DNA of 36,051 nucleotides. Origin: Enterobacter phage E-2. A program made the position numbers and the translations under genes. How positions within the stretch are numbered: position 1 is the stretch's first letter; each line of letters opens with the position of its first letter. Positions 18,674 through 36,051 of this stretch are shown one piece after another. The notes under the pieces are model-generated. The model had not been told where the DNA came from and searched no databases. It was given only the letters and a program-made list of their open reading frames with translations. The stretch is taken from sequence record KP791805.1; one strand, given 5' to 3'.

Positions 18674-18703
18674 CCTCATTGTGTGTAGCCTCATTGTGTG
18701 TAG
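18674..18703. repeat. Perfect 2x15-bp tandem direct repeat (cctcattgtgtgtag) immediately upstream of and overlapping the gene 1 ribosome-binding site
   Basis: Positions 18674-18688 are identical to 18689-18703. Confidence 0.9.
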
Positions 18704-18800
18704 TGTTAGTGGATATCATAAAGGGCACCTTGCGATACCCTTGAGTTATCCGCTATTCGTGCACTCAAGAGCTATTATCCAGATTGTTAAAGAACTTTAG
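18700..18800 (-). promoter_or_regulatory. R0.3-like RNase III site (the stem-loop that precedes gene 0.3 in T7), here directly upstream of gene 1
   Basis: The coding strand reads CTTTAACAATCTGGATAATAGCTCTTGAGTGCACGAATAGCGGATAACTCAAGGGTATCGCAAGGTGCCCTTTATGATATCCACTAAC. This is almost identical to the T7 R0.3 region as I recall it. Confidence 0.55.
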
Positions 18801-18951
18801 GCTACAGTTTCGTCGAGCCGAGGCTATTTCAGTGTTAGCCGTCACTTGCGTTATAAGTGCGACAAGCTCTTTATTATCGTGGTCGCTTGTGCTTTCGCCA
18901 TCTATCCACTATGTCGCGTTTTTACACCTACGACACTCGGTGTCTTTCATG

Positions 18952-18987
18952 TGGTACATCGTACCGTGCTTACTTCATGTTGTCAAC
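18952..18987 (-). promoter_or_regulatory. E. coli sigma70 early promoter A3
   Basis: On the coding strand: TTGACA, 17 bp (ACATGAAGTAAGCACGG), then TACGAT. Confidence 0.6.
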
Positions 18988-19061
18988 CATTTTGTTTCGC
19001 TTTATGTGCCGTGGTGCGCTTAAGTCACCTAGAAGACACCGAAGCGGTGGTTAACGTTATG

Positions 19062-19097
19062 TTGTGCATCTTACTGCGTTTACTTCATGTTGTCAAT
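19062..19097 (-). promoter_or_regulatory. E. coli sigma70 early promoter A2
   Basis: On the coding strand: TTGACA, 17 bp (ACATGAAGTAAACGCAG), then TAAGAT. Confidence 0.6.
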
Positions 19098-19189
19098 GCC
19101 TGTTTTTCGTATGACTTATCAGGCTGTCTACTTATCCGGTTGACTCCGGTATCTCAGGGAGTGGCTTTAAGGCCGTTGTCCCGTTGACG

Positions 19190-19226
19190 AGATGAATAAT
19201 AGCCTTAAGGGTTACTTAAAGTCAAC
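19190..19226 (-). promoter_or_regulatory. E. coli sigma70 early promoter A1
   Basis: On the coding strand: TTGACT, 17-18 bp, then (C)TATTAT. The flanking sequence GGATAAGTAGACAGCCTGATAAGTC is shared with T7 A1. Confidence 0.6.
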
Positions 19227-19278
19227 CATTAATTTAAATCTTTTATTAAATCCCTTATTCCCTCTTTAAGTATCCCTT

Positions 19279-19301
19279 ATTCCCTTTAGTGAGGGTGATT
19301 G
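19279..19301 (-). promoter_or_regulatory. T3-type phage promoter, phiOL position (replication/packaging-associated; variant downstream half)
   Basis: attccctttagtgagggtgattg. Confidence 0.65.
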
Positions 19302-19359
19302 AATTGACTACAGATAACTACAAGGCACCGCTACAGGTTAACAATGGGTCTTATCGGTC

Positions 19360-19860
19360 TGGTTGTCTTTAAGATAGCGGCACTCTTTAGGTGATGGCTT
19401 TAGGTGATGGCTTTAGGTCTGGTCTTTAGGGTTTACTTTATGAGGCTAACAGATAGGGACACATAGAGATGTACTATCGAACTGGTACACTAGGACACTC
19501 TTTAAGTCTCCAATAGTCACCCATCACTTTAGGTATTGACTTTAGGCAACACTTTAGGCTATCCTATAGGCCACTTGAGGAAATACCCAAGGTTAACCGA
19601 AGGTTAAACCAGAGGGGTAGGGCTGGCTTTAGGTGGCTTTAGGAGGGCTATGGGGGGTACTTTGGGTTCTTGAACTGTGAGATACCCATTCAGATTTTTG
19701 TGGTAAATTCTTAAAGGGTCTCTTTAGGCAACCACTTTAGGTAGGGCCACACCATAGGTGAGACCATAGGCGCATCCCGAAGGGATAGCTAGGAGACACT
19801 TAAAGACCCTGTAAGACCATTACGAACTACAGGGCATCTTTAGGTATAACCTTTAGGGTT
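19360..19860. repeat. Array of at least 14 dispersed CCTAAAG / CCTTAAAG heptamers (ctttagg / ctttaag on the + strand), including four 12-bp tandem units (ctttaggtgatgg x2, then ctttaggtctgg, tctttagggttt). This is the concatemer-junction/packaging region.
   Basis: ctttagg occurs at about 19387, 19399, 19411, 19423, 19527, 19540, 19552, 19636, 19645, 19719, 19731, 19836 and 19848. This is the same heptamer that decorates both genome ends of T7. Confidence 0.7.
19452..19682 (-). repeat. Predicted direct terminal repeat (a single collapsed copy in this circular assembly). The genome left end is predicted at 19682 (5'-TCTCACAGTTCAAGAACC...).
   Basis: The coding strand from 19682 reads TCTCACAGTTCAAGAACCCAAAGTACCCCCCATAGCCC..., which parallels the T7 left end TCTCACAGTGTACGGACCTAAAGTTCCCCCATAGGGGG. 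The span to ...TCTATGTGTCCCT (19455) is 228 bp, versus about 231 bp for the T3 terminal repeat. Boundaries are by analogy only. Confidence 0.45.
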
Positions 19861-19939
19861 GACTCTACAGGGATGAGTTGGTGTAGTGAAACTATACCTA
19901 CGAATCCCTCAGAGCCGCTTGTCGGTCATCAACAATAAT

Positions 19940-20089
19940 TTAATCCCCACAAGAGAGTATAGAGCAAAAGGCCACTTCCAGTTGACCGAGGTGGTCAGTA
20001 AGACCTGCGTACCCAAGGGTAGCAGTAAGTACCAGAAGAAATCGCCAAGTGACTCTATGACGCAGCAGGGCAATCAGCAAGTGTAACAT
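19940..20089 (-). CDS. gp19.5: gp19.5 (49 aa)
   Basis: ATG 20087-20089 is preceded by GAAAGGAGGTGG. MLHLLIALLRHRVTWRFLLVLTATLGYAGLTDHLGQLEVAFCSILSCGD versus T7 gp19.5 MFRLLLNLLRHRVTYRFLVVLCAALGYASLTGDL... Confidence 0.85.
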   Translation of the reverse strand: MLHLLIALLRHRVTWRFLLVLTATLGYAGLTDHLGQLEVAFCSILSCGD

Positions 20090-20230
20090 TGAGCCACCTC
20101 CTTTCAGTTGCTCTAAGGTAGGTGATTATACAATGATAATTATCACCAATCACAGAGGTAGACTTAAAGTGCATAAAGGGTCATTGCATAACCTGAATGA
20201 CTAACCTATATAGTAGCTTTAAGTCCCCTC

Positions 20231-20253
20231 TCTCCCTTTAGTGAGGGTTAATT
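20231..20253 (-). promoter_or_regulatory. T3-type phage promoter, phiOR position (consensus)
   Basis: tctccctttagtgagggttaatt lies between gene 19 and gene 19.5. Confidence 0.8.
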
Positions 20254-20333
20254 CAAACTCATTGATTCTTAAGGAATTTCTTAAAGTGACCATCCGTGGT
20301 CTAATTGAATCCTTATGCGCTCAACATGCATAA

Positions 20334-22097
20334 CTACCAGTCAATGAACCTGTTGCTATTCACATCGTCATCCTCCCAATAGAGTTCCATACCGTCAACC
20401 ATAGAGGTAACTACATGACCAGCCGAATGGATTGGGTGCTCCATGTGTTCCTCTAAGAACGCCTCAAGCACCTCAGCCTCCACCTTCACGGCGTCCAGTT
20501 CCATCGTAGAGCGTAAAAACTCCACACCCAATGCTAACGCATCAAGTCGGTCGTCATGTGCCACAGCGCCCTTCTCACGGGCCATGCGGGTCAACTGGTA
20601 GAACAGTGAATAGCGAACATCATGCTTGCCATCAGCGTCACGGGCAGTCTGGTAGTCCTCACGAATCACCTCGTCACGAATCACAAGGCGGTGCGTAGAG
20701 AGTACAGGCTCCAGCGTATCACAAATGCGTAGTTCCTTCATACCGCGAGCACGAATCTCTTCAAGTTGCGCTGCATGGTGTTTCAGGAGCACAGGGCTGA
20801 ATACCTTACCAAACATACCATCCCCGAAGTTACTCTCGAAGACCACTGTCTGAACCTTCCACTGCTTCGCTTTCTTAGCGAGGGACTCAAGGGTCTTATC
20901 GGAATAACCATCGCGGAACCCGCCAGCTTCCATCAGATAGATGTAGCCATTCAGGGTGAACAACACTGCATAACCTGTCTCATCCTTACCGCGACCACTT
21001 GGGTCAATCACGAGGATGCGTTGTTGGTACTGTCCAGTGTTCTGGCTGCACGAATGATAGCTATGAATATCATCACCCTTAAGGCCCACGTTAGGAAGCT
21101 CTTCATTGCGATTCTGACGGTTCGGAAGCCACTGGTAATGCATTGGGGCTTTCTCGAAGTCCAGACCGCACACGATAGCGTCACGGAGGCGTAAGGGGTA
21201 CTTCTCGGCATCACTCAGGTTCGGGTTGAGCATGAACTGCAAAGTGAAGCCAGCCTTACCGTATTCCAACTCACGCTCACGCAGGTCTTCCATATCGAAG
21301 CGAACGGGGTCAGTCGGTTGACCTTGGAGCATCTCGAACCCATCGTTGAACTCTTCGCGGAGCATCGGGGCCAGACGGTCGCCATAGTACAAGTCTTCCT
21401 CACGGCTACGCGGATAGAGCGCAGGCCAGATGATTGTGGTGTACCCACGGTTATCTTCGAGTTCCTTGTACAAGGTCATTTCGGTTTGAGGCGTACCAAG
21501 GTAGATAACGCGAGAAGTCGGCAGCGGTTTCAGAAGCGCAGCAAATTCCTGCACCAGAGTCCACAGCTTCTCACGGGCACCTTGAGTTGCGGAGTTAGAC
21601 GGAATCTCAACGTCATCCGCTATGATGATATCAGCACGGCTACCAGTCAACTGACCAGTGATACCCACCGACTTCACAGACGGAGAGTGGTCAGGCTTGG
21701 CAGGGCCAACATCGAAACTAATCACAGAGTCACGCTGACCGGGGCGAGGCTTTAGCTCAGCCAAGAATGGTAGCAGGTCAATGATGTTCTTGATGAAGAT
21801 GGAGTTAGCGTCCGCACGTTCTTTGGATGCAGAGACAATCAGTATCTTCAACTGAGGGTCACGCCATAACGTCCACACAACGAACGCACAGGTGATGAAG
21901 GACTTACCGATACCACGGAAAGCCTGTAGGATAAACTTCTTGTTGTCTCCGTTAGCTAGACACCGGGCCATATCAATCTGACACTTAGTCGGTGGCGGGA
22001 GAGCCAAAGCCTTCCACAATACGAACAGGAAGGCCACGAAGTCACCCTTAAGTTGCGCGATGATTAGCGCATTACGGTTTGCTTGGGTGTCGCTCAT
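20334..22097 (-). CDS. gp19: Terminase large subunit (DNA maturase B) gp19
   Basis: 587 aa, collinear with T7 gp19 (586 aa). ATPase Walker A and a nuclease C-terminal domain are present. Confidence 0.97.
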
Positions 22098-22544: not shown

Positions 22545-22613
22545 AGATTTCACGTAGATGCACCAAATAACATCCATAAAGGCTCTCCGAGTGGAGAACC
22601 TTGAGTATGTCAC
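22545..22613 (-). promoter_or_regulatory. R18.5-like RNase III site (conserved bipartite element)
   Basis: catccataaaggctctcc ... ccttgagtatgtcac. Confidence 0.45.
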
Positions 22614-22880
22614 TTACTGTAGCGTGATAGTTTCATCGTCAGTCAGACCATTAGGGCCGACCACTTTGTTGTAGTCTTCCAGACCAGCCGCGAGACCTCC
22701 AAGGATATTCTCGTCCGGTGTCAGCTTACTGATTTGGAACTTATGGCGGTCTAACAGTTTGCCGATTGCGTTGTAAAGCTGCGGCGTTCGGCGTTCCTCG
22801 CTCTGGAGGTCAGCAAGCATACGCTGTGCCATCTCAGTGTCTAGCATCTCCAGCAGCTTGATTAAAGTCTTGTCGCTCAT
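22614..22880 (-). CDS. gp18: Terminase small subunit (DNA maturase A) gp18
   Basis: 88 aa. MSDKTLIKLLEMLDTEMAQRMLADLQ... matches T7 gp18. Confidence 0.9.
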   Translation of the reverse strand: MSDKTLIKLLEMLDTEMAQRMLADLQSEERRTPQLYNAIGKLLDRHKFQISKLTPDENILGGLAAGLEDYNKVVGPNGLTDDETITLQ

Positions 22881-22883
22881 AGG

Positions 22884-23087
22884 TTACTCCTTATTTGCAC
22901 GTTTCCAGTCAATCATCTTATCGACTACCTTGGCACCAATCTGAACCACTGTGTAGGCGATAGCTGCAACGTAGAACCATTCGTTTAACGATAGTCCCCA
23001 AAAGAGTCGGGCCGCCCCATCAGCGACCCCTGTGCCAACAATAGGCGCAGCCTTAACGACCTCATTGTTGAAGTCGAAGGATAACAT
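22884..23087 (-). CDS. gp17.5: Class II holin gp17.5
   Basis: 67 aa, the same length as T7 gp17.5, with a single TM segment and MLSFDFNNEVVKAAPIVGTG.... Confidence 0.9.
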   Translation of the reverse strand: MLSFDFNNEVVKAAPIVGTGVADGAARLFWGLSLNEWFYVAAIAYTVVQIGAKVVDKMIDWKRANKE

Positions 23088-23098
23088 TTAACACCTCC

Positions 23099-25042
23099 TT
23101 AGTCTGTCATAAGTTTAGATTCAAGCTCCTGAACGCGAGCGTCTAGGTTCTTAACAAGTAACATCAGTCCACCAATAATCTGGTTCGGGTCAGGGGACTG
23201 AATTCCATCTGACATTACGTCCACAGCCTCTGGCCACAAGCGTATTAAATCCTGTGTAATGAAGCCAGCCCGTGAACGCTTACCTTCAATGGTGTTTGTC
23301 CTACCCCTGTTATCTGTATAGGATGCGTCCTTATATTTGTAGGACACAGGGATGTACGACCGAATGATGTTCAACATGTCGTCAGCAGAGCGAACAACCT
23401 TAATGTCTTCTTTCAGCCTTCTGTCCGACTTGAACCAGCGGAACCCAACGGCTGTACCATCAACCCTACCTTCAAGATAATCCCCGCCCCTTGCGGTGAA
23501 TAACTGAACACCTCCGGGTGGCTTGGCGAACAATGAGTTGTTATTTAGTCCGCTCCATAAGTTACCCCACTGCGCCCAGATGCCACCAGTTAGATTACCG
23601 TTACCTTCAAACATCGTACTTCCCATTCCTGCGTAGAGGTTCTGACCAACGATATTGTTGTTCTCCTCAATTCGGGCACCTGAACGAACCTGTAGGTGGC
23701 TTGCGTAGATAACACCGCCTCCGGTAATATCAACTCTACCAGTCTCTACTGAGTTCTCAGCATTGACTGTGCGGAACACGAATCCGCCCGAACCAGCACC
23801 ACGGTTGGTGATAAAGTTTGACTCACCGCTACCACCCTCGTTCCATCCAATATGTAGACCCTGCCGTTGTCCCACATGTTGTGGATTGGTGTCAATGTGG
23901 AGTCGGGACAGCTTATTATAAACGTTGGGTGATAGTGTTTGATTAATGCCTCCATGAGCATATGTGACGCCAGCTACGGCGATGTTTCGCTGAGAGTACA
24001 TATCCCGCTTTGCGGTAATATCCCTTTCAACAATCAAGTCCTCTCCAACAAGCGCACCTTTCTGGATACTCGCCGCACCTGTGGAGACTAAACCACCGCC
24101 TGTGATATTGCCGGGACTATTAATGTTTCCATTCATGGTTACATGGATGCCATCAACACTATCAATCGCAGCCGCGAAGTCGTTCATATTGCCCAACTTA
24201 CTTGCTTCCTCAATGGCTCGTTCCTCAGAAGCCTTGGCTTTGGCCTCAGAGGACTTAGCGTTGGCCTCAGAGTTCTTCGCGTTACTTTCGGAATCCTTCG
24301 CATTGGCCTCAGAAGTTTTTGCCCTGTCGGCCGCATCTTTAGCCTCATTCCGGTATGACATGGAGTGAAGCGCGTAGGTTCGTGATGATTCTAGATTTGG
24401 CTCCACAGCGGTTTCCTTAACGGCCCACTGTTTTGATAATTCGGCGGAGCCAGCAGAAGAGCTTGCAGAGCTTGCAGATGCGTTCGCAGAGTTGTTCGCA
24501 TCGTTTGCACGAGCGGTCGCACGGTCAGCTTCCTGTTTCGCTCGATTCGCAGAGTTCAACGCAGAGTCGTTCCACCGTTGGATTTGACCTAGATTGATTG
24601 CGTCACCTACATCTTGTGCATCCGCAACGTTCACAATACGACGACCACGAGCATCCAAGTTCCCATCATTGTTAACGCCAATTGTATCAGCGGTAAGGTC
24701 ACGGGCTTCCTCAGCAACGTGAAGTGTCTGAACCTGAGATATGTTCAAATCATATGCCCGCAGGATTGAGCCGTCGGTAAAGTCAACCAGACGATCTGTA
24801 GCGGAGGTGAATCGACGGATTTCAATCAAAGTATAACCGTCCGCTGGCCCCAATGCTCTCGTTGTGGAGATTGTGGTCTTAGTCGCAAAACGATAGTCTT
24901 GATTCAAGATGAGTTCCTTTCGGTCAACACCGATAAGGGTCACTCTGACGAACTTACGCGCCAGATACTCGAACGGAATATTAAAGTCCGTAGTGGAGCC
25001 ATCCAGCGGGTAAGTCATCACGGTCTTAATATTTGTAGCCAT
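23099..25042 (-). CDS. gp17: Tail fiber gp17 (647 aa). It has a T7-like N-terminal tail-attachment domain, a heptad-repeat stalk, a divergent distal region, and a C-terminal S74-type intramolecular chaperone (auto-cleaving) domain.
   Basis: Start is ATG 25040-25042 with AAGGAGGT 7 nt upstream (MATNIKTVMTYPLDGSTTDFNIPFEYLARKF..., like T7 MANVIKTV...). The track ORF starts 8 codons upstream without an SD. The C-terminal ...FRWFKS|DRRLKEDIKVV...QIIGGLMLLVKNLDARVQELESKLMTD carries the S-D-x-R-L-K-x-x-I signature. Confidence 0.9.
   Translation of the reverse strand: MATNIKTVMTYPLDGSTTDFNIPFEYLARKFVRVTLIGVDRKELILNQDYRFATKTTISTTRALGPADGYTLIEIRRFTSATDRLVDFTDGSILRAYDLNISQVQTLHVAEEARDLTADTIGVNNDGNLDARGRRIVNVADAQDVGDAINLGQIQRWNDSALNSANRAKQEADRATARANDANNSANASASSASSSAGSAELSKQWAVKETAVEPNLESSRTYALHSMSYRNEAKDAADRAKTSEANAKDSESNAKNSEANAKSSEAKAKASEERAIEEASKLGNMNDFAAAIDSVDGIHVTMNGNINSPGNITGGGLVSTGAASIQKGALVGEDLIVERDITAKRDMYSQRNIAVAGVTYAHGGINQTLSPNVYNKLSRLHIDTNPQHVGQRQGLHIGWNEGGSGESNFITNRGAGSGGFVFRTVNAENSVETGRVDITGGGVIYASHLQVRSGARIEENNNIVGQNLYAGMGSTMFEGNGNLTGGIWAQWGNLWSGLNNNSLFAKPPGGVQLFTARGGDYLEGRVDGTAVGFRWFKSDRRLKEDIKVVRSADDMLNIIRSYIPVSYKYKDASYTDNRGRTNTIEGKRSRAGFITQDLIRLWPEAVDVMSDGIQSPDPNQIIGGLMLLVKNLDARVQELESKLMTD
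24222..24326. repeat. About five tandem 21-bp repeats inside gene 17, encoding the heptad repeats SEANAKD/SESNAKN/SEANAKS/SEAKAKA
   Basis: gcctcagaagccttggctttg / gcctcagaggacttagcgttg / gcctcagagttcttcgcgtta / ctttcggaatccttcgcattg / gcctcagaagtttttgccctg. Confidence 0.75.
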
Positions 25043-25093
25043 GTGACCTCCTTTGTAAATTAGCATTAAGAGAAGAGGCCAGAATGTGACCTC

Positions 25094-25116
25094 TCTCCCT
25101 TTAGTGAGGGTTTATT
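25094..25116 (-). promoter_or_regulatory. T3-type phage promoter, phi17 position
   Basis: tctccctttagtgagggtttatt overlaps the gene 16 stop. Confidence 0.8.
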
Positions 25117-28100
25117 GTTTCTTCGGCGTCTCCTTTATACGGATACCGTTGGCCTCGTAGATTTTCATAATGAGTTGCTGCGATAGCGGGTCATTAGGAA
25201 TCAACTCACGAGAGGTGTTGAAGAGTCCTGTACGGAACTCCAGAGCGGTAGCCTTGTTTGGAGAAGACAGCAGGGAAGCGGCGTTAATAGCTGTTGCACC
25301 CACAGAACCCACAAAACCTAAACCCGGAACCTGCTCACCAACCGCACCTGCGATAGATGAAGCCACCTGTCTACCTGTCAGTGCCTTGTTAGGGTCTCGC
25401 TTCTCGGACTCTTTAGGGAGTACCGTAGAGCGGGTGTACTTATAGGTATCGCTACCAACCATCCCAGCGAACATATCGTAGATACTCAATGGTGAGCCTA
25501 AGTGTGAACTACGAGAGATTGACGCATGAGCAATCATCTTAGGGTCAAGGGCGTTCTTAAGGTACTCCTTACGTTTGTGCTCCTGTAGGCTTGCGGCCTT
25601 AAGGTGCGCCTGCGCAACGTAGTAACCACCAGCTAGACCCAAAGAGATGATATGAGTCAACGCTTGGTCTAACGCACGGTTGTTCTTCGTTGCCTCGTAG
25701 AAGCTACGGACGAACCGGGAGTTAAGGGACTTGATGACGAAGTTCTTAAACTGCATCACCATCTTCACCCCTGCACCGAACGCTTTGGAGTCCTGTGAGG
25801 AAACCTTGTGAGGGCGCAGTATAGTCTCATCCGCCACCTTGTCGGCCAGTCTCCACAAGTCCATTGAACGTGGGTCGTTAGCGAAAGCCTGTTTGTCACG
25901 AATGGTGAACTTACCGTCTTCTCCACGAGTCGCATAGTCTCTGAACAACTGCTTGATTCCATTCCACTGCTCAGGGCTGATAGAGGCAGACTTAAGGTAG
26001 TTTGCCTTACCGAACTTAGAGGCTTTCCCAGCAAGGGCCGCTCCAGCCACATCCCCAAGCACACCCTGACGGGCAGCATCAAGAATGTAGTTTGATGTTC
26101 CGTTTAGGAGCATTGTCCAAGGAGAGCGTGCAGCCAACTCTTGAGTACCGAAACGAATCGTACCGACCACATTGGCAACCGCAGCGCTGGTGTCCGTAGA
26201 CTCCCTAAGTCGGCGCACGTGGTCTTCACGTCCCGGACGGATTAGTTGGTCTAGTTCCTTACCGAACACCATCCCGTGTATCTCCTTAATCTCAGAGGCA
26301 CGAAGCGGTTTACCACGGTTGACCCAATCGTTAATCATAGGGATGCCATGAGTTATCGCAGAGACGTTACCTTTCGCCAGCATACCAGCGATTTCAGTAA
26401 CGTTCTGTGCGCCCATATAGGCGTTCTTAGCAAAGAACGTGAGGTCATTGACGGAGCGCAGGGCTGTACCCCAAGCGCCTTCCGGGTTCCTACGAGCACG
26501 ACCAGTTAGAATCTTCACGGTGTCCTTGAGGGCTTCCACTTCACCTTTCAATGTGCCGTTGCCCTCTGACTGCTTATCCAGCGCCATGATTTCATCTTTC
26601 AGGTCTTTGGTAGTCTTACCGGAACCACCCATGATTGCAACATCACCATCTACTCGTCGGTCGTATGCAGGCAGAATTTCAGCCATGTCATAGGTACGCA
26701 GGTCATTCACAGAGAACGTGTTACCATCAGGGAGAGTCACCGCCATGTCACTGTCGAACATGTTACGGGCTTCCAAGAAGTTGTTGTTCTCGATACCCAC
26801 CAGACCCTCAATGTTATCCTCAATGACAGAGGAGGCAGAGAACTGGTCGGTGTGTGAAATACCATACGCCTTATCCATCGCGTGCTTCTGCACCATCTCA
26901 GGCGTAACTTCCTGCACGGATTTGAGACCGTTAAGTTCCATCAGGTACTCATCGACCCTCGCCTTGACTTCTGGACGAGCACGATAAGACGTCAACCATG
27001 ACTCCGCGATTGCTCGCTGCAAGCCATCATTACCGTAACGTTTAACCATCTCAATCTTGATAGCGCGGTCGTACACGTTTGGCACGTAGGTTCCCTTGTG
27101 GCGTGAGCCGGGGAAGATACTGACCGCCTTGGTGTTGCCGAAGATTGACGGGTTCTCCATGATTTCACGTTTGAGGTCAAAGTGCTGCTTGAGGATGTTC
27201 ATCACGTTCCGCTCACCCTTTGTCAGGTTTGCTTGAAGCTCAGGTCGCTCAATCGCCAAGGCTGCACGCTTGTAGATTTCCTGTCGGATTTCCTTACGGC
27301 TCATTGTGGCCCCACCTGTGGAGAACTCAGGGTCTTTCATTGCAGTACGCACAGCATCATAAAGCTGATTGTAGGTGCGCTGATTGTTCGCGTGGAGCCG
27401 CTCCTTAATGTCAGAAGCAGTCGCACCGAACTTACCATTAGAGCCTGATTCCATCCCTGTTGGAGAACGCACAAGGTCACTCGCAATGGAGCGAACAGTC
27501 GGGTTCTCAGAGCGGAGAGTCTTCAAGCCAATCTCAGTGAAACCACCCAAAGAGATACCACGCGCGGCACGCTCAGGGTTGACCGCCTCGAACTCGCTAA
27601 GAGTCTGAGGGTTCAGTGGGTTGGTGTCGCTCAGGATTTGACCTTGAGGCAACACAACGGCACCCGGCTCGGTCTCTAGAGGTGAATACTCAACGCCAGC
27701 GTGCTCACGGTCGAACACACGGTTCTCGCTAGGCATACGGGTCAGGTCTTCGCCACCAGCGTTCAGAGCGGTCTCACGGGCTTCCAAGCGGTGTGCCATA
27801 GGAGCGAAGTCATTAACAACCTCAGTACCACGGGAACGGCGAATACCAGCGGCGATAGCGTCACTGATTGCACTCATCCCGGCACCGAACATCAGACCGC
27901 CTAAAGCAGCATCAGCGTAGTGTGCTTCACCACCAGCTATTGATGTACGGATACCCTCAGATGCAATCGCTAATCCAGCGCTTTGAGTACCAACGACGAA
28001 CGCCTTGTTAACCACCTTGAGACCCTTCCCGGCTACGCCCACTAGCGGAACGTAACTCAGCGGGTCTACACCAGCGCCGACGATACCAGCAGTAAGTTTG

Positions 28101-29074
28101 GCCCCAACACCAGCATCGGCAGACCGCGCATCCATCTCATAGTTGTCATTCGCCATCTTAATGAGGGCGTCCAGATTCTCAGGAGAGCCTCCAGTGACTA
28201 CGTTGATATACGCTGGGTTCTTCACTTCCTTACGGATTCGCTCTAGCTCTTCTGGCGTCCAAGTGTGACTATTCCAACGTGTAGGCGTGATGGTGTCCTT
28301 GAACAAATCAAAACCATCGTCGCTACGGGCTGCACGGAAAGCAACTCCAAGTACAGAGTTGTGAAGCTCCGCACTTGTTGCATCACCAATTCCGAAGAAG
28401 GTCGAACGTGCGTTAAACTCGTCCAGCGTTGTTCCAGTCTTTTCCCAAAAGTCCTTAGCATAAGGCACGTTAGGTGCTTTCTGCTCCTTACCCTCCACTT
28501 TGAATCCAGTTGACTCCGGCAGGTCAGTACCTACCGTCTGCTTCTTCCCGATTCCAGCAAATGCATCCCCAGATGGAATGCCCTTAGCCTTTGGGGTGAT
28601 ACCGCCGAACGCCTCCAAGTCCCCCTTGCGAGGACTGTTAGCTACGTCCATCAGGTTGCGCATATAGTTACGACCTTCCTCAGAGATTGAGGCCCAATCA
28701 CCTTTGTCGTAGGCCTGCATCTGAGGGGCACCATTTCTGCCCTCGCCTTGGTTGTACGCTAGGGCTGCCTTAAGCTCATCCCCATCGTATTTACGAATGA
28801 GGTCACTCAGGTGACGAGCGGCTGCATCCACAGCCAACTCCGGGTTGTAACGGTCATCATCGTCTGCATCAGTGACCTTGAGTCCCAGCGCAGTGGCTGT
28901 ACCCTTGGTGAACTGCATGAGACCCTTCGGGCCAGTTGGAGATTTGGCCTTTGGATTGAAGCTGGATTCGTTGAATGCCAATTTACGAAGCAGGTCATAG
29001 GAGACCCCATGTTTGTCTGCCGCTTTTTGAAATAACCCGTCGAACTCGCTAGGTTTGTTCTTATCGTAGCTCAT
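25112..29074 (-). CDS. gp16: Internal virion protein D gp16 (ejectosome) with an N-terminal lytic transglycosylase domain
   Basis: 1320 aa versus T7 gp16 1318 aa. The N-terminus MSYDKNKPSEFDGLFQKAADKHGVSYDLLRKLAFNESSFNPKAKSPTGPKGLMQFTKGTA carries the SLT-family E-S...GLMQ motif. Confidence 0.97.
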   Translation of the reverse strand: MSYDKNKPSEFDGLFQKAADKHGVSYDLLRKLAFNESSFNPKAKSPTGPKGLMQFTKGTATALGLKVTDADDDDRYNPELAVDAAARHLSDLIRKYDGDELKAALAYNQGEGRNGAPQMQAYDKGDWASISEEGRNYMRNLMDVANSPRKGDLEAFGGITPKAKGIPSGDAFAGIGKKQTVGTDLPESTGFKVEGKEQKAPNVPYAKDFWEKTGTTLDEFNARSTFFGIGDATSAELHNSVLGVAFRAARSDDGFDLFKDTITPTRWNSHTWTPEELERIRKEVKNPAYINVVTGGSPENLDALIKMANDNYEMDARSADAGVGAKLTAGIVGAGVDPLSYVPLVGVAGKGLKVVNKAFVVGTQSAGLAIASEGIRTSIAGGEAHYADAALGGLMFGAGMSAISDAIAAGIRRSRGTEVVNDFAPMAHRLEARETALNAGGEDLTRMPSENRVFDREHAGVEYSPLETEPGAVVLPQGQILSDTNPLNPQTLSEFEAVNPERAARGISLGGFTEIGLKTLRSENPTVRSIASDLVRSPTGMESGSNGKFGATASDIKERLHANNQRTYNQLYDAVRTAMKDPEFSTGGATMSRKEIRQEIYKRAALAIERPELQANLTKGERNVMNILKQHFDLKREIMENPSIFGNTKAVSIFPGSRHKGTYVPNVYDRAIKIEMVKRYGNDGLQRAIAESWLTSYRARPEVKARVDEYLMELNGLKSVQEVTPEMVQKHAMDKAYGISHTDQFSASSVIEDNIEGLVGIENNNFLEARNMFDSDMAVTLPDGNTFSVNDLRTYDMAEILPAYDRRVDGDVAIMGGSGKTTKDLKDEIMALDKQSEGNGTLKGEVEALKDTVKILTGRARRNPEGAWGTALRSVNDLTFFAKNAYMGAQNVTEIAGMLAKGNVSAITHGIPMINDWVNRGKPLRASEIKEIHGMVFGKELDQLIRPGREDHVRRLRESTDTSAAVANVVGTIRFGTQELAARSPWTMLLNGTSNYILDAARQGVLGDVAGAALAGKASKFGKANYLKSASISPEQWNGIKQLFRDYATRGEDGKFTIRDKQAFANDPRSMDLWRLADKVADETILRPHKVSSQDSKAFGAGVKMVMQFKNFVIKSLNSRFVRSFYEATKNNRALDQALTHIISLGLAGGYYVAQAHLKAASLQEHKRKEYLKNALDPKMIAHASISRSSHLGSPLSIYDMFAGMVGSDTYKYTRSTVLPKESEKRDPNKALTGRQVASSIAGAVGEQVPGLGFVGSVGATAINAASLLSSPNKATALEFRTGLFNTSRELIPNDPLSQQLIMKIYEANGIRIKETPKKQ

Positions 29075-32375: not shown

Positions 32376-32398
32376 TCTCCCTTTAGTGAGGGTTAATT
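32376..32398 (-). promoter_or_regulatory. T3-type phage promoter, phi13 position (consensus)
   Basis: tctccctttagtgagggttaatt. Confidence 0.85.
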
Positions 32399-34839: not shown

Positions 34840-35430
34840 TTAGCGGTTAAGTAGACCAGAGGTGAATGCGTCACCATCCAGCATATTGTAGTTGCCGTAG
34901 TCTAGCTCGTACTCGAAGCACGCACGCCATGCTTCCTGTTCCTCTTCCTGCAACACTCCGTCTACCTCCGGCGCACCGAAGAAGCGGTTGTTGAACTGGC
35001 GTGAGGCCTTGGTGACGATGTAGTTACGGAAGCACTCAGGCATCTCATCGAACTCTCTCAGACGAATCAGGTTGACCTGAACACCAGAAGGAAATCTGTC
35101 AGTCTTCGCAGAGCGGTCATAGATATAGCCACCACGGTTGATATATTGGGTCTGGCCGCTGGTTGCCATTACTGACAGATAGTCAGAGCTAAATGGAATC
35201 ATACCAGAGAACGCATCCGGTAGAAGAGTCACACCTTCCTCAATATTGAATGTCCATCCTCGTGATTGAATCTGTCGGTTAATCTTATTGAGTACACGTC
35301 GAGCATTCGCAACGTCAGCATTCGCATCACCCTCAAGGGTCGATACTGGTGGCTCACCGATGGAAGCCAGAATGTCGTTGACGGCTGATAGCTCTTCTGC
35401 GGTCTCAATGTTCATCTCATAAGAGCGCAT
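34840..35430 (-). CDS. gp11: Tail tubular protein A gp11
   Basis: 196 aa, identical in length to T7 gp11. [29 protein letters not shown]... Confidence 0.95.
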
Positions 35431-35437
35431 GATGTTA

Positions 35438-35460
35438 CCTCCTGTTAGTGAGGGTTAAAG
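35438..35460 (-). promoter_or_regulatory. T3-type phage promoter, phi11 position (class II variant). It overlaps the gene 11 SD.
   Basis: cctcctgttagtgagggttaaag. Confidence 0.65.
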
Positions 35461-35502
35461 CAAAAAACCCCTCAGATACCCTACGAGGGCACCCAAGGGG
35501 TT
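35461..35502 (-). terminator. Tphi, the major phage-RNAP terminator after gene 10
   Basis: The coding strand reads AACCCCTTGGGTGCCCTCGTAGGGTATCTGAGGGGTTTTTTG, a GC hairpin plus U6. It resembles T7 Tphi (AACCCCTTGGGGCCTCTAAACGGGTCTTGAGGGGTTTTTTG). Confidence 0.75.
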
Positions 35503-35508
35503 CGCATA

Positions 35509-35667
35509 TTATTGAGACTTAAGTGCCTTGTTACGAGCACGAGTAATGGCGGCCTTCTGTTGAGGCGTGAGAGCTACTTCGTCGGCTACCTCTTGGGTCG
35601 GCTCCACTTCACTCTCCGCGTTCATACTCAAAGGCGCTACCCTTAAGCCTTCGAAGTCTTTGGCAGC
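35509..35667 (-). CDS. gp10B: 10B-specific C-terminal extension, reached by a -1 ribosomal frameshift near the end of 10A (minor capsid protein 10B)
   Basis: The -1 frame is open for 49 codons past the 10A stop: ...KDFEGLRVAPLSMNAESEVEPTQEVADEVALTPQQKAAITRARNKALKSQ*. It ends 4 nt before Tphi. A candidate slip site is CCA AAG (tRNA-Lys, AAG to AAA) at about 35662-35667. Confidence 0.55.
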   Translation of the reverse strand, partial: AAKDFEGLRVAPLSMNAESEVEPTQEVADEVALTPQQKAAITRARNKALKSQ

Positions 35668-36051
35668 ACGATAGCGCCAGCAGCTTCTGGACGCAGACCA
35701 CCGTGACCCATCGCATATTTAGCGATAATCTGGTCAGCCTGATAGTTAGCACGACGAGCGCGCTCCAGAGCCAAGTCTTTCAGTTTGACCGTACCAACCG
35801 CAGAGCGGTGCTGGAACAGGCCAACAACGTTATCCAGAGCAACCTTAACGGTAGCGCTAGAAGTCGCCGGGAAAGCGTGCTTCTGGTCAGCCGGGGCATC
35901 CTCACGGGTATCACCAGCGCCACCAGCGGTCAGGTGCGGAACCTCAACCACTTCGAAGCCCATCACGTTGCGGATAGTACCGCGCTCAGGGTCGAGCAGT
36001 GCCTGATAGTTTGCAGCGTTCGGCATCAGGGCAGCCAGAATCGCAGAGTAG
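35643..36051 (-). CDS. gp10A: Major capsid protein 10A, C-terminal part (runs off the window end and continues in frame at 638..1)
   Basis: ...YSAILAALMPNAANYQALLDPERGTIRNVMGFEVVEVPHLTAGGAG...RRANYQADQIIAKYAMGHGGLRPEAAGAIVLPKTSKA versus T7 ...SYSAILAALMPNAANYAALIDPEKGSIRNVMGFEVVEVPHLTAGGAG...RRANFQADQIIAKYAMGHGGLRPEAAGAVVF. Confidence 0.95.
   Translation of the reverse strand, partial: YSAILAALMPNAANYQALLDPERGTIRNVMGFEVVEVPHLTAGGAGDTREDAPADQKHAFPATSSATVKVALDNVVGLFQHRSAVGTVKLKDLALERARRANYQADQIIAKYAMGHGGLRPEAAGAIVLPKTSKA

Follow-up and report, generated by a model that had tools for sequence, protein, structure and literature searches.

Gene 17 of Enterobacter phage E-2 (sequence record KP791805.1; its whole stretch of 36,051 nucleotides is hereafter called the window) very likely encodes a tail fiber of the phiYeO3-12 kind found in Teetreviruses. 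In this protein, gp17, a T7-type anchor, a rod, a distal tip and a presumably self-cleaving Peptidase_S74 chaperone follow one another along the chain. The feature is already known: its sequence has been deposited, and a close ortholog that cleaves itself has been characterised experimentally. An earlier note on this DNA had proposed much the same layout, and the motif positions, the Ser539 codon (23428-23426) and the masses that it quoted were all reproduced when the gene was translated. Calculation puts full-length gp17 at 70.0 kDa, of which 57.6 kDa falls to residues 1-539 and 12.3 kDa to residues 540-647. The gene and its parts occupy the following positions.

23099-25042, minus strand: gene 17, tail fiber protein gp17, 647 amino acids plus stop (open reading frame list, translation and full-length PHROG 9502 match)
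24578-25042, minus strand: T7-type N-terminal domain, residues 1-155 (Pfam PF03906, Phage_T7_tail, E = 4.1e-58)
24104-24577, minus strand: Ala/Ser/Asn-rich rod (proximal half-fiber) and junction, residues 156-313 (homology to T7/T3 gp17)
23429-24103, minus strand: distal half of the fiber, Gly/Asn-rich and presumed to bind the receptor, residues 314-538 (unrelated to the T7/T3 tip)
[quoted passage not shown]

Does the C-terminus of gp17 belong to the Peptidase S74/ICA family? Judged at the levels of sequence profile, catalytic residues and modelled fold, it does. The Pfam search that the earlier note had suggested for this region placed Peptidase_S74 above its gathering cutoff: residues 539-607 matched positions 1-57 of the 58 in profile PF13884 with E = 2.2e-12 and 47.5 bits, against a cutoff of 22. 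Around the start of the match, the protein reads FRWFKS (residues 534-539) and DRRLKEDIKVV (540-550), and it closes with LLVKNLDARVQELESKLMTD (628-647). To assemble the family, we relied on an exhaustive HMMER search with residues 300-647 as the query against 1.84 billion representative proteins, which returned 201 relatives at E ≤ 0.001; a word-indexed homolog search had given five proteins. Ser539, Asp540 and Lys544 were invariant in all 64 aligned S74 segments, while position 538 varied freely (D, S, T, N, Q or K). The putative catalytic pair is located as follows.

23426-23428, minus strand: codon TCG of Ser539, predicted to be the catalytic nucleophile where the chain is cut (the same in all 64 segments; position 1 of PF13884)
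23411-23413, minus strand: codon of Lys544, predicted to serve the Ser-Lys dyad as its general base (the same in all 64 segments)

The spacing of these residues fits the Ser-x4-Lys pattern of the S74/ICA family, whose reference pairs are S911/K916 in endoNF, S1264/K1269 in T5 and S587/K592 in MyRF (PMC8326128, PMC4690869). A profile built from 27 S74 segments (A1) was then searched against the PDB. It matched 8jov (E = 6.5e-22), 6f45 (4.7e-16), the MyRF ICA domain 7dc3 (1.7e-14), GA-1 gp12 3gud (2.1e-10), the T5 L-shaped fiber 8hqz (3.8e-8) and 6eu4 (4.5e-4). A single-sequence phmmer search of the PDB with the C-terminal 128 residues gave marginal matches only (E = 0.06-0.9), designed helical proteins among them.

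The modelled fold points the same way. An AlphaFold2 (AF2) monomer model of residues 520-647, built on A1, reached a mean predicted local distance difference test score (pLDDT) of 88 and a predicted template modelling score (pTM) of 0.70; it ends in a 28-residue helix (model residues 100-127, protein residues 619-646). When this model was compared with the PDB by Foldseek, the top six matches were all ICA chaperones, including 7dc3 (probability 1.00, template modelling score 0.55-0.61), 3gud and 3gw6, at pairwise sequence identities of 11-24%. The domain thus shares with the ICA domains of the K1F endosialidase (3GW6), T5 pb1 (4UW8, 8HQZ), GA-1 gp12 (3GUD) and MyRF (7DC3) the Ser-x4-Lys dyad within the motif SD.RLK..I, the C-terminal placement and, at the terminus, a long helix that would lend itself to trimerisation. 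The cargo, in contrast, differs from that of K1F and T5: where theirs is a sialidase or the T5 tip, that of gp17 is a short Gly/Asn-rich fiber tip whose fold is not established.

The fiber has an experimentally characterised relative. The exact 647-residue sequence is on record as the tail fiber of Enterobacter phages E-2 and E-4 (YP_009226215.1, AKA61571.1, AKA61659.1), which are classified as Teetrevirus E2. By BLASTP, the protein is 92% identical to gp17 of phiYeO3-12 (CAB63638.1), with 590 of 641 positions matched and no gaps, and the S74 domain (539-647) is 93% identical. Gene 17 DNA is 90.5-91% identical over its full length to that of the Yersinia phages phiYeO3-12 and phiYe-F10. The best match to gene 17 DNA in the phage collection stood at 91%, and the fiber gene of Enterobacter phage E-3 is 83.6% identical.

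In phiYeO3-12 gp17, UniProt annotates the S74 domain at residues 539-645, and the purified protein, expected at 69.4 kDa, ran on sodium dodecyl sulfate-polyacrylamide gel electrophoresis (SDS-PAGE) as species of about 58 kDa and about 11 kDa (Pyra et al. 2020, PMC7582827). Mass spectrometry of the same protein gave 57.423 and 12.242 kDa (Filik et al. 2022, PMC8739404). The outcome that the earlier note had proposed to seek by SDS-PAGE or mass spectrometry was, then, already published for this ortholog. The phiYeO3-12 protein binds Yersinia enterocolitica O:3 cells and fails to bind the rough mutant YeO3-R1, which lacks O-antigen (Filik et al. 2022, PMC8739404); the suggestion that the fiber targets a polysaccharide unlike that of T3 accordingly holds for the ortholog, whose receptor is the O:3 O-antigen.

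The E-2 protein shares with the gp17 proteins of phiYeO3-12 and phiYe-F10 its length class (645-647 residues), its four-part architecture, its slot between genes 16 and 17.5 and an identical cleavage motif, SDRRLKEDIKVV. It differs from phiYeO3-12 gp17 at position 538 (Lys in E-2, Gln in phiYeO3-12), at its C-terminus (SKLMTD rather than KDKT) and in the rod, where residues ~165-315 represent another allele. The named hosts differ as well, being Yersinia for phiYeO3-12 and Enterobacter for E-2. The combination of a T7 anchor with an S74 domain is widespread; both domains were present in eight of the relatives retrieved, and K1F gp17 is itself built in this way (PMC7582827).

Which bond is cut? 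The earlier note had put the cut after Ser539, which is probably one residue too far. We consider it probable that the chain is cut between Lys538 and Ser539, so that the serine leaves with the chaperone. This site is favoured because the catalytic serine departs with the chaperone in T5 and K1F and because the mass of the C-terminal fragment of the ortholog lies nearer to that of residues 539-645; it is favoured further because the PF13884 profile, the UniProt domain and the 3gud chain all begin at the serine. Mature T5 pb1 ends at residue 1263 and Ser1264 leaves with its chaperone (Garcia-Doval et al. 2015, PMC4690869); in the K1F tailspike, the catalytic serine is likewise removed (PMC4690869). 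Only for phi29 did the model keep the serine at the end of the mature chain, and the density there was weaker (PMC4690869). The released GA-1 chaperone chain in 3gud begins SDERHK. For phiYeO3-12 gp17, a fragment of residues 539-645 has a calculated mass of 12,258.8 Da, and one of residues 540-645 comes to 12,171.8 Da. Only the C-terminal fragment was used in this comparison, since vector-derived residues are not known and the published mass of the N-terminal fragment (57.423 kDa) is therefore uninformative on the scissile bond. Cutting E-2 gp17 between Lys538 and Ser539 would give fragments with calculated masses of 57,542 and 12,430 Da.

The N-terminal part of the fiber is, as the earlier note had claimed, a T7 gp17-like anchor (PF03906, E = 4e-58). 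It matched the T7 gp17 structures 7boz, 8e4g and 8dsp with E-values of 1e-73 to 1e-86, and it contains the motifs RAYDLN (95-100), HVAEEARD (108-115) and GRRIVN (133-138). With this Phage_T7_tail domain and a gene that sits between genes 16 and 17.5, the protein falls within the T7-type gp17 family. By analogy with T7, residues 1-155 would be the part through which the fiber docks at the gp11/gp12 interface of the tail.

Contrary to the earlier note, the resemblance to T7/T3 gp17 does not stop at residue 150. Both BLASTP and phmmer extended the alignment to residue 313, which corresponds to T7 residue 296. Identity is 79% over residues 1-150, 24-25% over 151-270 and 47% over 271-313, a stretch that includes EASKLGNMNDFAAAIDSVDG; beyond it, identity falls to a background of ~20%. 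No significant alignment to the T7/T3-type distal half and C-terminal tip was found past residue 313, and identity across 314-647 is about 20% or lower. Anchor and proximal rod thus have homologous counterparts in T7/T3, and only the distal half-fiber (314-538) and the chaperone (539-647) have been replaced. E-2 gp17 thus shares with T7/T3 gp17 the anchor (79%), rod and junction homology to ~313, the gene position and a late promoter. The T7/T3 distal half, pyramid and tip domains included, is on the other hand replaced in E-2, and T7/T3 gp17 has neither an S74 chaperone nor processing. T7 and T3 bind the rough core of lipopolysaccharide.

Within the rod, the 7-residue repeats described earlier proved real: there are four of them, followed directly by a degenerate fifth unit, SEERAIE.

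24230-24313, minus strand: four tandem 7-residue repeats, SEANAKD SESNAKN SEANAKS SEAKAKA, residues 244-271 (protein sequence)

In the DNA, Tandem Repeats Finder reported, at 24223-24283, a period of 21 nucleotides that recurs 2.9 times with 82% matches. At the junction of anchor and rod, residues 135-174 (24521-24640) gave a match to YadA_stalk of 20.8 bits against a cutoff of 28.4, and membership in that family was not accepted. YadA_stalk is a family of trimeric autotransporter adhesins; the same sub-threshold match was seen in one relative (P0008), and it may be no more than the signature of a trimeric neck or coiled-coil transition of a generic kind.

Turning to the distal half, the Gly/Asn-rich region followed by an S74 chaperone is as the earlier note had it, with the PF13884 search, the solved ICA structures and the predicted fold all in agreement on the chaperone. 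Residues 314-538 are about 20% identical to T7/T3 and 93% identical to phiYeO3-12, and no Pfam family was found for them. Could this region be an enzyme, making gp17 a tailspike depolymerase with a catalytic central domain like that of the K1F endosialidase? The layout is that of K1F gp17, a T7 anchor with a C-terminal S74 domain (PMC7582827), and the receptor class of the ortholog is O-polysaccharide. Against this, a Pfam search at E ≤ 1 detected no sialidase, lyase, pectate-lyase or SGNH domain, and NCBIfam returned none. In addition, a phmmer search of the PDB with residues 300-539 produced nothing credible and no solved enzyme (an RHS2 match at E = 0.015 was judged to be due to chance), the region's 225 residues are too few for a typical beta-helix depolymerase, and the gp17 binding studies report no enzymatic activity on O-antigen (PMC8739404). 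We consider a depolymerase very unlikely and continue to regard gp17 as a fiber with a distal tip.

The distal half also harbors a conserved motif that is common to many fibers.

23714-23863, minus strand: conserved motif QGLHIGWNE..G.GE..F..N.G.G.GGF.FR.VN..N..E.GRV, residues 394-443 (common to many fibers)

The motif occurred in one to three copies in 109 of the 155 relatives retrieved, often upstream of an S74 domain, and alignment A3 has ten invariant columns. No Pfam family was consistent across 27 motif segments. The sole PDB matches to the motif profile were OXA beta-lactamases (E ~0.2 over 25 residues), which we dismissed as chance. Elsewhere in the distal half, residues 314-538 carry 16 substitutions relative to phiYeO3-12, nine of them within residues 363-385. 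Tentatively, and with a low probability in our estimation, the motif might be a widespread, structurally undescribed fiber module, and, separately, the 16 substitutions, with their nine at 363-385, might constitute a specificity patch that retargets a Yersinia O-antigen scaffold to an Enterobacter receptor.

Several observations weigh against the interpretation of E-2 gp17 as a self-cleaving fiber equivalent to that of phiYeO3-12, or against parts of it. First, both the cleavage and the receptor binding of the E-2 protein are inferred from an ortholog that is 92% identical. Second, in endoNF and T5, an Arg positioned 14 residues before the Ser (R897 and R1250, respectively) and contributed by a neighbouring chain acts as a folding sensor and oxyanion helper. 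This upstream sensor is not evident in gp17: the equivalent position, 525, is Gly, Arg526 is variable among close relatives, and Arg518 and Arg535 are conserved within the close gp17 family only. Third, the measured fragment mass of 12,242 Da is exact for neither cut, lying 17 Da below the value for a Ser539 start and 70 Da above that for an Asp540 start. Fourth, a triple beta-helix in the distal part would be an assumption taken over from K1F and T5, because an AF2 monomer of residues 291-647 (from a 6-sequence alignment) had a mean pLDDT of 32 and a pTM of 0.16, was unusable for fold and left the distal structure unestablished. Finally, the receptor of the E-2 fiber may differ from the O:3 O-antigen, because the distal substitutions cluster at 363-385 and the phage is named for Enterobacter.

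Taken furthest, such points would make the S74-like C-terminus a non-cleaving relic, with full-length, 70-kDa gp17 in the virions. The cleavage data do come from the ortholog rather than from E-2 gp17, the Arg sensor of endoNF/T5 is not obviously conserved, and the P1 residue differs (Lys538, as opposed to Gln538 in phiYeO3-12). Nevertheless, gp17 has kept Ser539, Asp540 and Lys544, none of which varies in any of the 64 homologs, and the domain is 93% identical to that of phiYeO3-12, whose protein cleaves (PMC7582827, PMC8739404). The identity of residue 538 is unlikely to matter, because this position is freely variable in the family. MyRF cleaves without a stalk Arg (PMC8326128). A relic is thus highly improbable in our view, and we retain self-cleavage as the expected behavior of E-2 gp17.

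How did the gene acquire its parts? The earlier note took the distal module to be foreign to an otherwise T3-like genome, the product of either natural exchange or a deliberate host-range graft. The comparison of genomes does not bear this out: the backbone is phiYeO3-12/ECA2-like, and a fiber of this type is the standard one there. Apart from gene 17, the window shares 96-97.5% identity with many Teetreviruses, ECA2, phiSG-JL2, phiYe-F10 and ESh10 among them. The gene 16-17 region of T3 is 86-99% identical to T7 and 45-77% identical to the E-2 window. Within the phiYeO3-12/ECA2-like clade, it is therefore T3 that carries the atypical fiber, its genes 16-17 being T7-like and unlike the window, and the description “otherwise T3-like genome” is misleading.

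Inside gene 17, sliding-window identity to phiYeO3-12 and phiYe-F10 is 93-99%, except for a patch of ~450 nucleotides in the rod (24550-24100), where it drops to 67%; this patch is 94.2% identical to gene 17 of Serratia phage 2050H2. Compared with ECA2, the closest whole-genome relative, identity decays from ~24700, stays lost up to the stop codon and is back at 99% from 23050; the ECA2 fiber, at 562 residues, is different. On these comparisons, gene 17 is a three-way mosaic of natural origin, put together within a single family of Teetrevirus fibers that bear S74 domains. Its anchor is common to the clade, its rod is nearest to that of Serratia phage 2050H2, and its distal part and chaperone are nearest to those of phiYeO3-12 and phiYe-F10. 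The joints fall in the conserved anchor or after it, around the rod, and where the gene reaches its conserved boundary with 17.5.

A designed swap, in which a foreign distal module was engineered onto a T3 scaffold, would leave the same pattern: the collapse of identity to ECA2 within gene 17, the 99% identity downstream and the different, 562-residue fiber of ECA2 could all be read in that way. An engineered module, however, would be expected to be ~100% identical to its donor, and no segment equals a known one; the best values are 90.5-91% for the whole gene (phiYeO3-12, phiYe-F10) and 94.2% for the rod (2050H2). Moreover, the junction sequences bear no cloning scars, the exact protein was deposited from the isolates E-2 and E-4 (Teetrevirus E2), the backbone is not that of T3 (45-77% over genes 16-17), and many natural Teetreviruses have fibers of this family, among them phages of Yersinia, Enterobacter, Klebsiella, Serratia and Shigella. 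With no identical donor, no scars and a deposit as a natural isolate, a deliberate graft is extremely unlikely, and natural mosaicism remains our explanation for the structure of gene 17.

How, then, might this fiber be made? Gene 17 would be transcribed from the T3-type late promoter matched upstream of it (see below). Three gp17 chains would form one fiber, and, judging from T7 structures, residues 1-155 would plug into the tail at gp11/gp12. Residues ~156-313, an Ala/Ser/Asn-rich homolog of the T7 rod with its four 7-residue repeats, would make up the proximal rod, and residues 314-538 the distal, receptor-binding half. Presumably, the chaperone (residues 539-647) trimerises through its long C-terminal helix and both nucleates the folding of the distal part and sets its register. 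Correct folding of the trimer would be followed by a cut in the chain, made by the Ser539-Lys544 dyad, most likely between Lys538 and Ser539. The ~12.4-kDa chaperone would be freed while the ~57.5-kDa mature fiber stays, its distal tip exposed for a surface polysaccharide.

An arrangement of T7 anchor, rod, distal tip and self-cleaving S74 chaperone is a textbook layout for the fibers and spikes of Autographiviridae. The fiber is an ordinary one, and the finding has little importance beyond correct annotation. By analogy with phiYeO3-12, the annotation should give a mature virion fiber of ~57.5 kDa (residues 1-538) and a released chaperone of 12.4 kDa. Swapping the receptor-binding module requires that the chaperone be carried along, and the recombination joints, within or just after the anchor and around the rod (~165-315), are natural splice points for fiber engineering.

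The start and the control signals of gene 17 were also examined. An in-frame ATG lies 24 nucleotides further upstream, and the mechanically derived open reading frame consequently reaches 25066. MATNIK is nevertheless the true start of gp17: a Shine-Dalgarno element precedes it, and it agrees with the annotated start of phiYeO3-12 gene 17. PHROG 9502 (“tail fiber protein”) covers residues 1-646 of the 647 in gp17 (profile positions 1-647, 1283.8 bits). The signals are as follows.

25046-25053, minus strand: Shine-Dalgarno element AAGGAGGT, ending 3 nucleotides upstream of the ATG (read from the intergenic sequence)
25094-25116, minus strand: late promoter of the T3 type (phi17) that overlaps gene 16 at its 3' end (match to AATTAACCCTCACTAAAGGGAGA with one mismatch)

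In phiYeO3-12, the phi17 promoter is annotated at the same position. Counting this one, eleven T3-type phage promoters with at most three mismatches were found in the window, all of them on the minus strand, where none would be expected by chance; the matches at 774-796, 20231-20253 and 32376-32398 are perfect. Gene 17 is flanked upstream by gp16 (25112-29074) and downstream by the holin 17.5 (22884-23087), beyond which lie gp18, the spanins 18.5/18.7 and the terminase gp19 (20334-22097). This order of late genes is canonical for T7/T3.

Some features of the genome as a whole were also noted. T3 is 91-100% identical to the window over part of gene 19 (21250-21850), whereas across genes 16-18 (22600-27100) it is 45-77% identical to the window and 86-99% identical to T7, which shows T3's own mosaicism. 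When the ends of the window were joined on the minus strand (1-800 with 35400-36051), an intact, 348-residue, T3-type major capsid gene (MANIQGG...) emerged. The window is thus a complete, circularly permuted genome of 36,051 bp, cut inside gene 10.

At this length, the genome is small for a Teetrevirus (38-39.6 kb being usual). The interval from gene 19 to gene 1 (18695-20333) spans 1.6 kb, leaving no room for the genes 0.3 (S-adenosylmethionine hydrolase) and 0.7 (kinase) of phiYeO3-12 and T3; it holds no minus-strand open reading frame of at least 60 amino acids, and its GC content is 0.44-0.45. As the interval is collinear with ECA2 (95.9% identity), its small size looks like a feature of the clade. 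ECA2 has an annotated endonuclease VII gene right after gene 18.5 (L004, 8122-8501) that the window does not have at the corresponding point (~22072), and insertions such as this one probably explain part of the ~2.9-kb difference in genome size.

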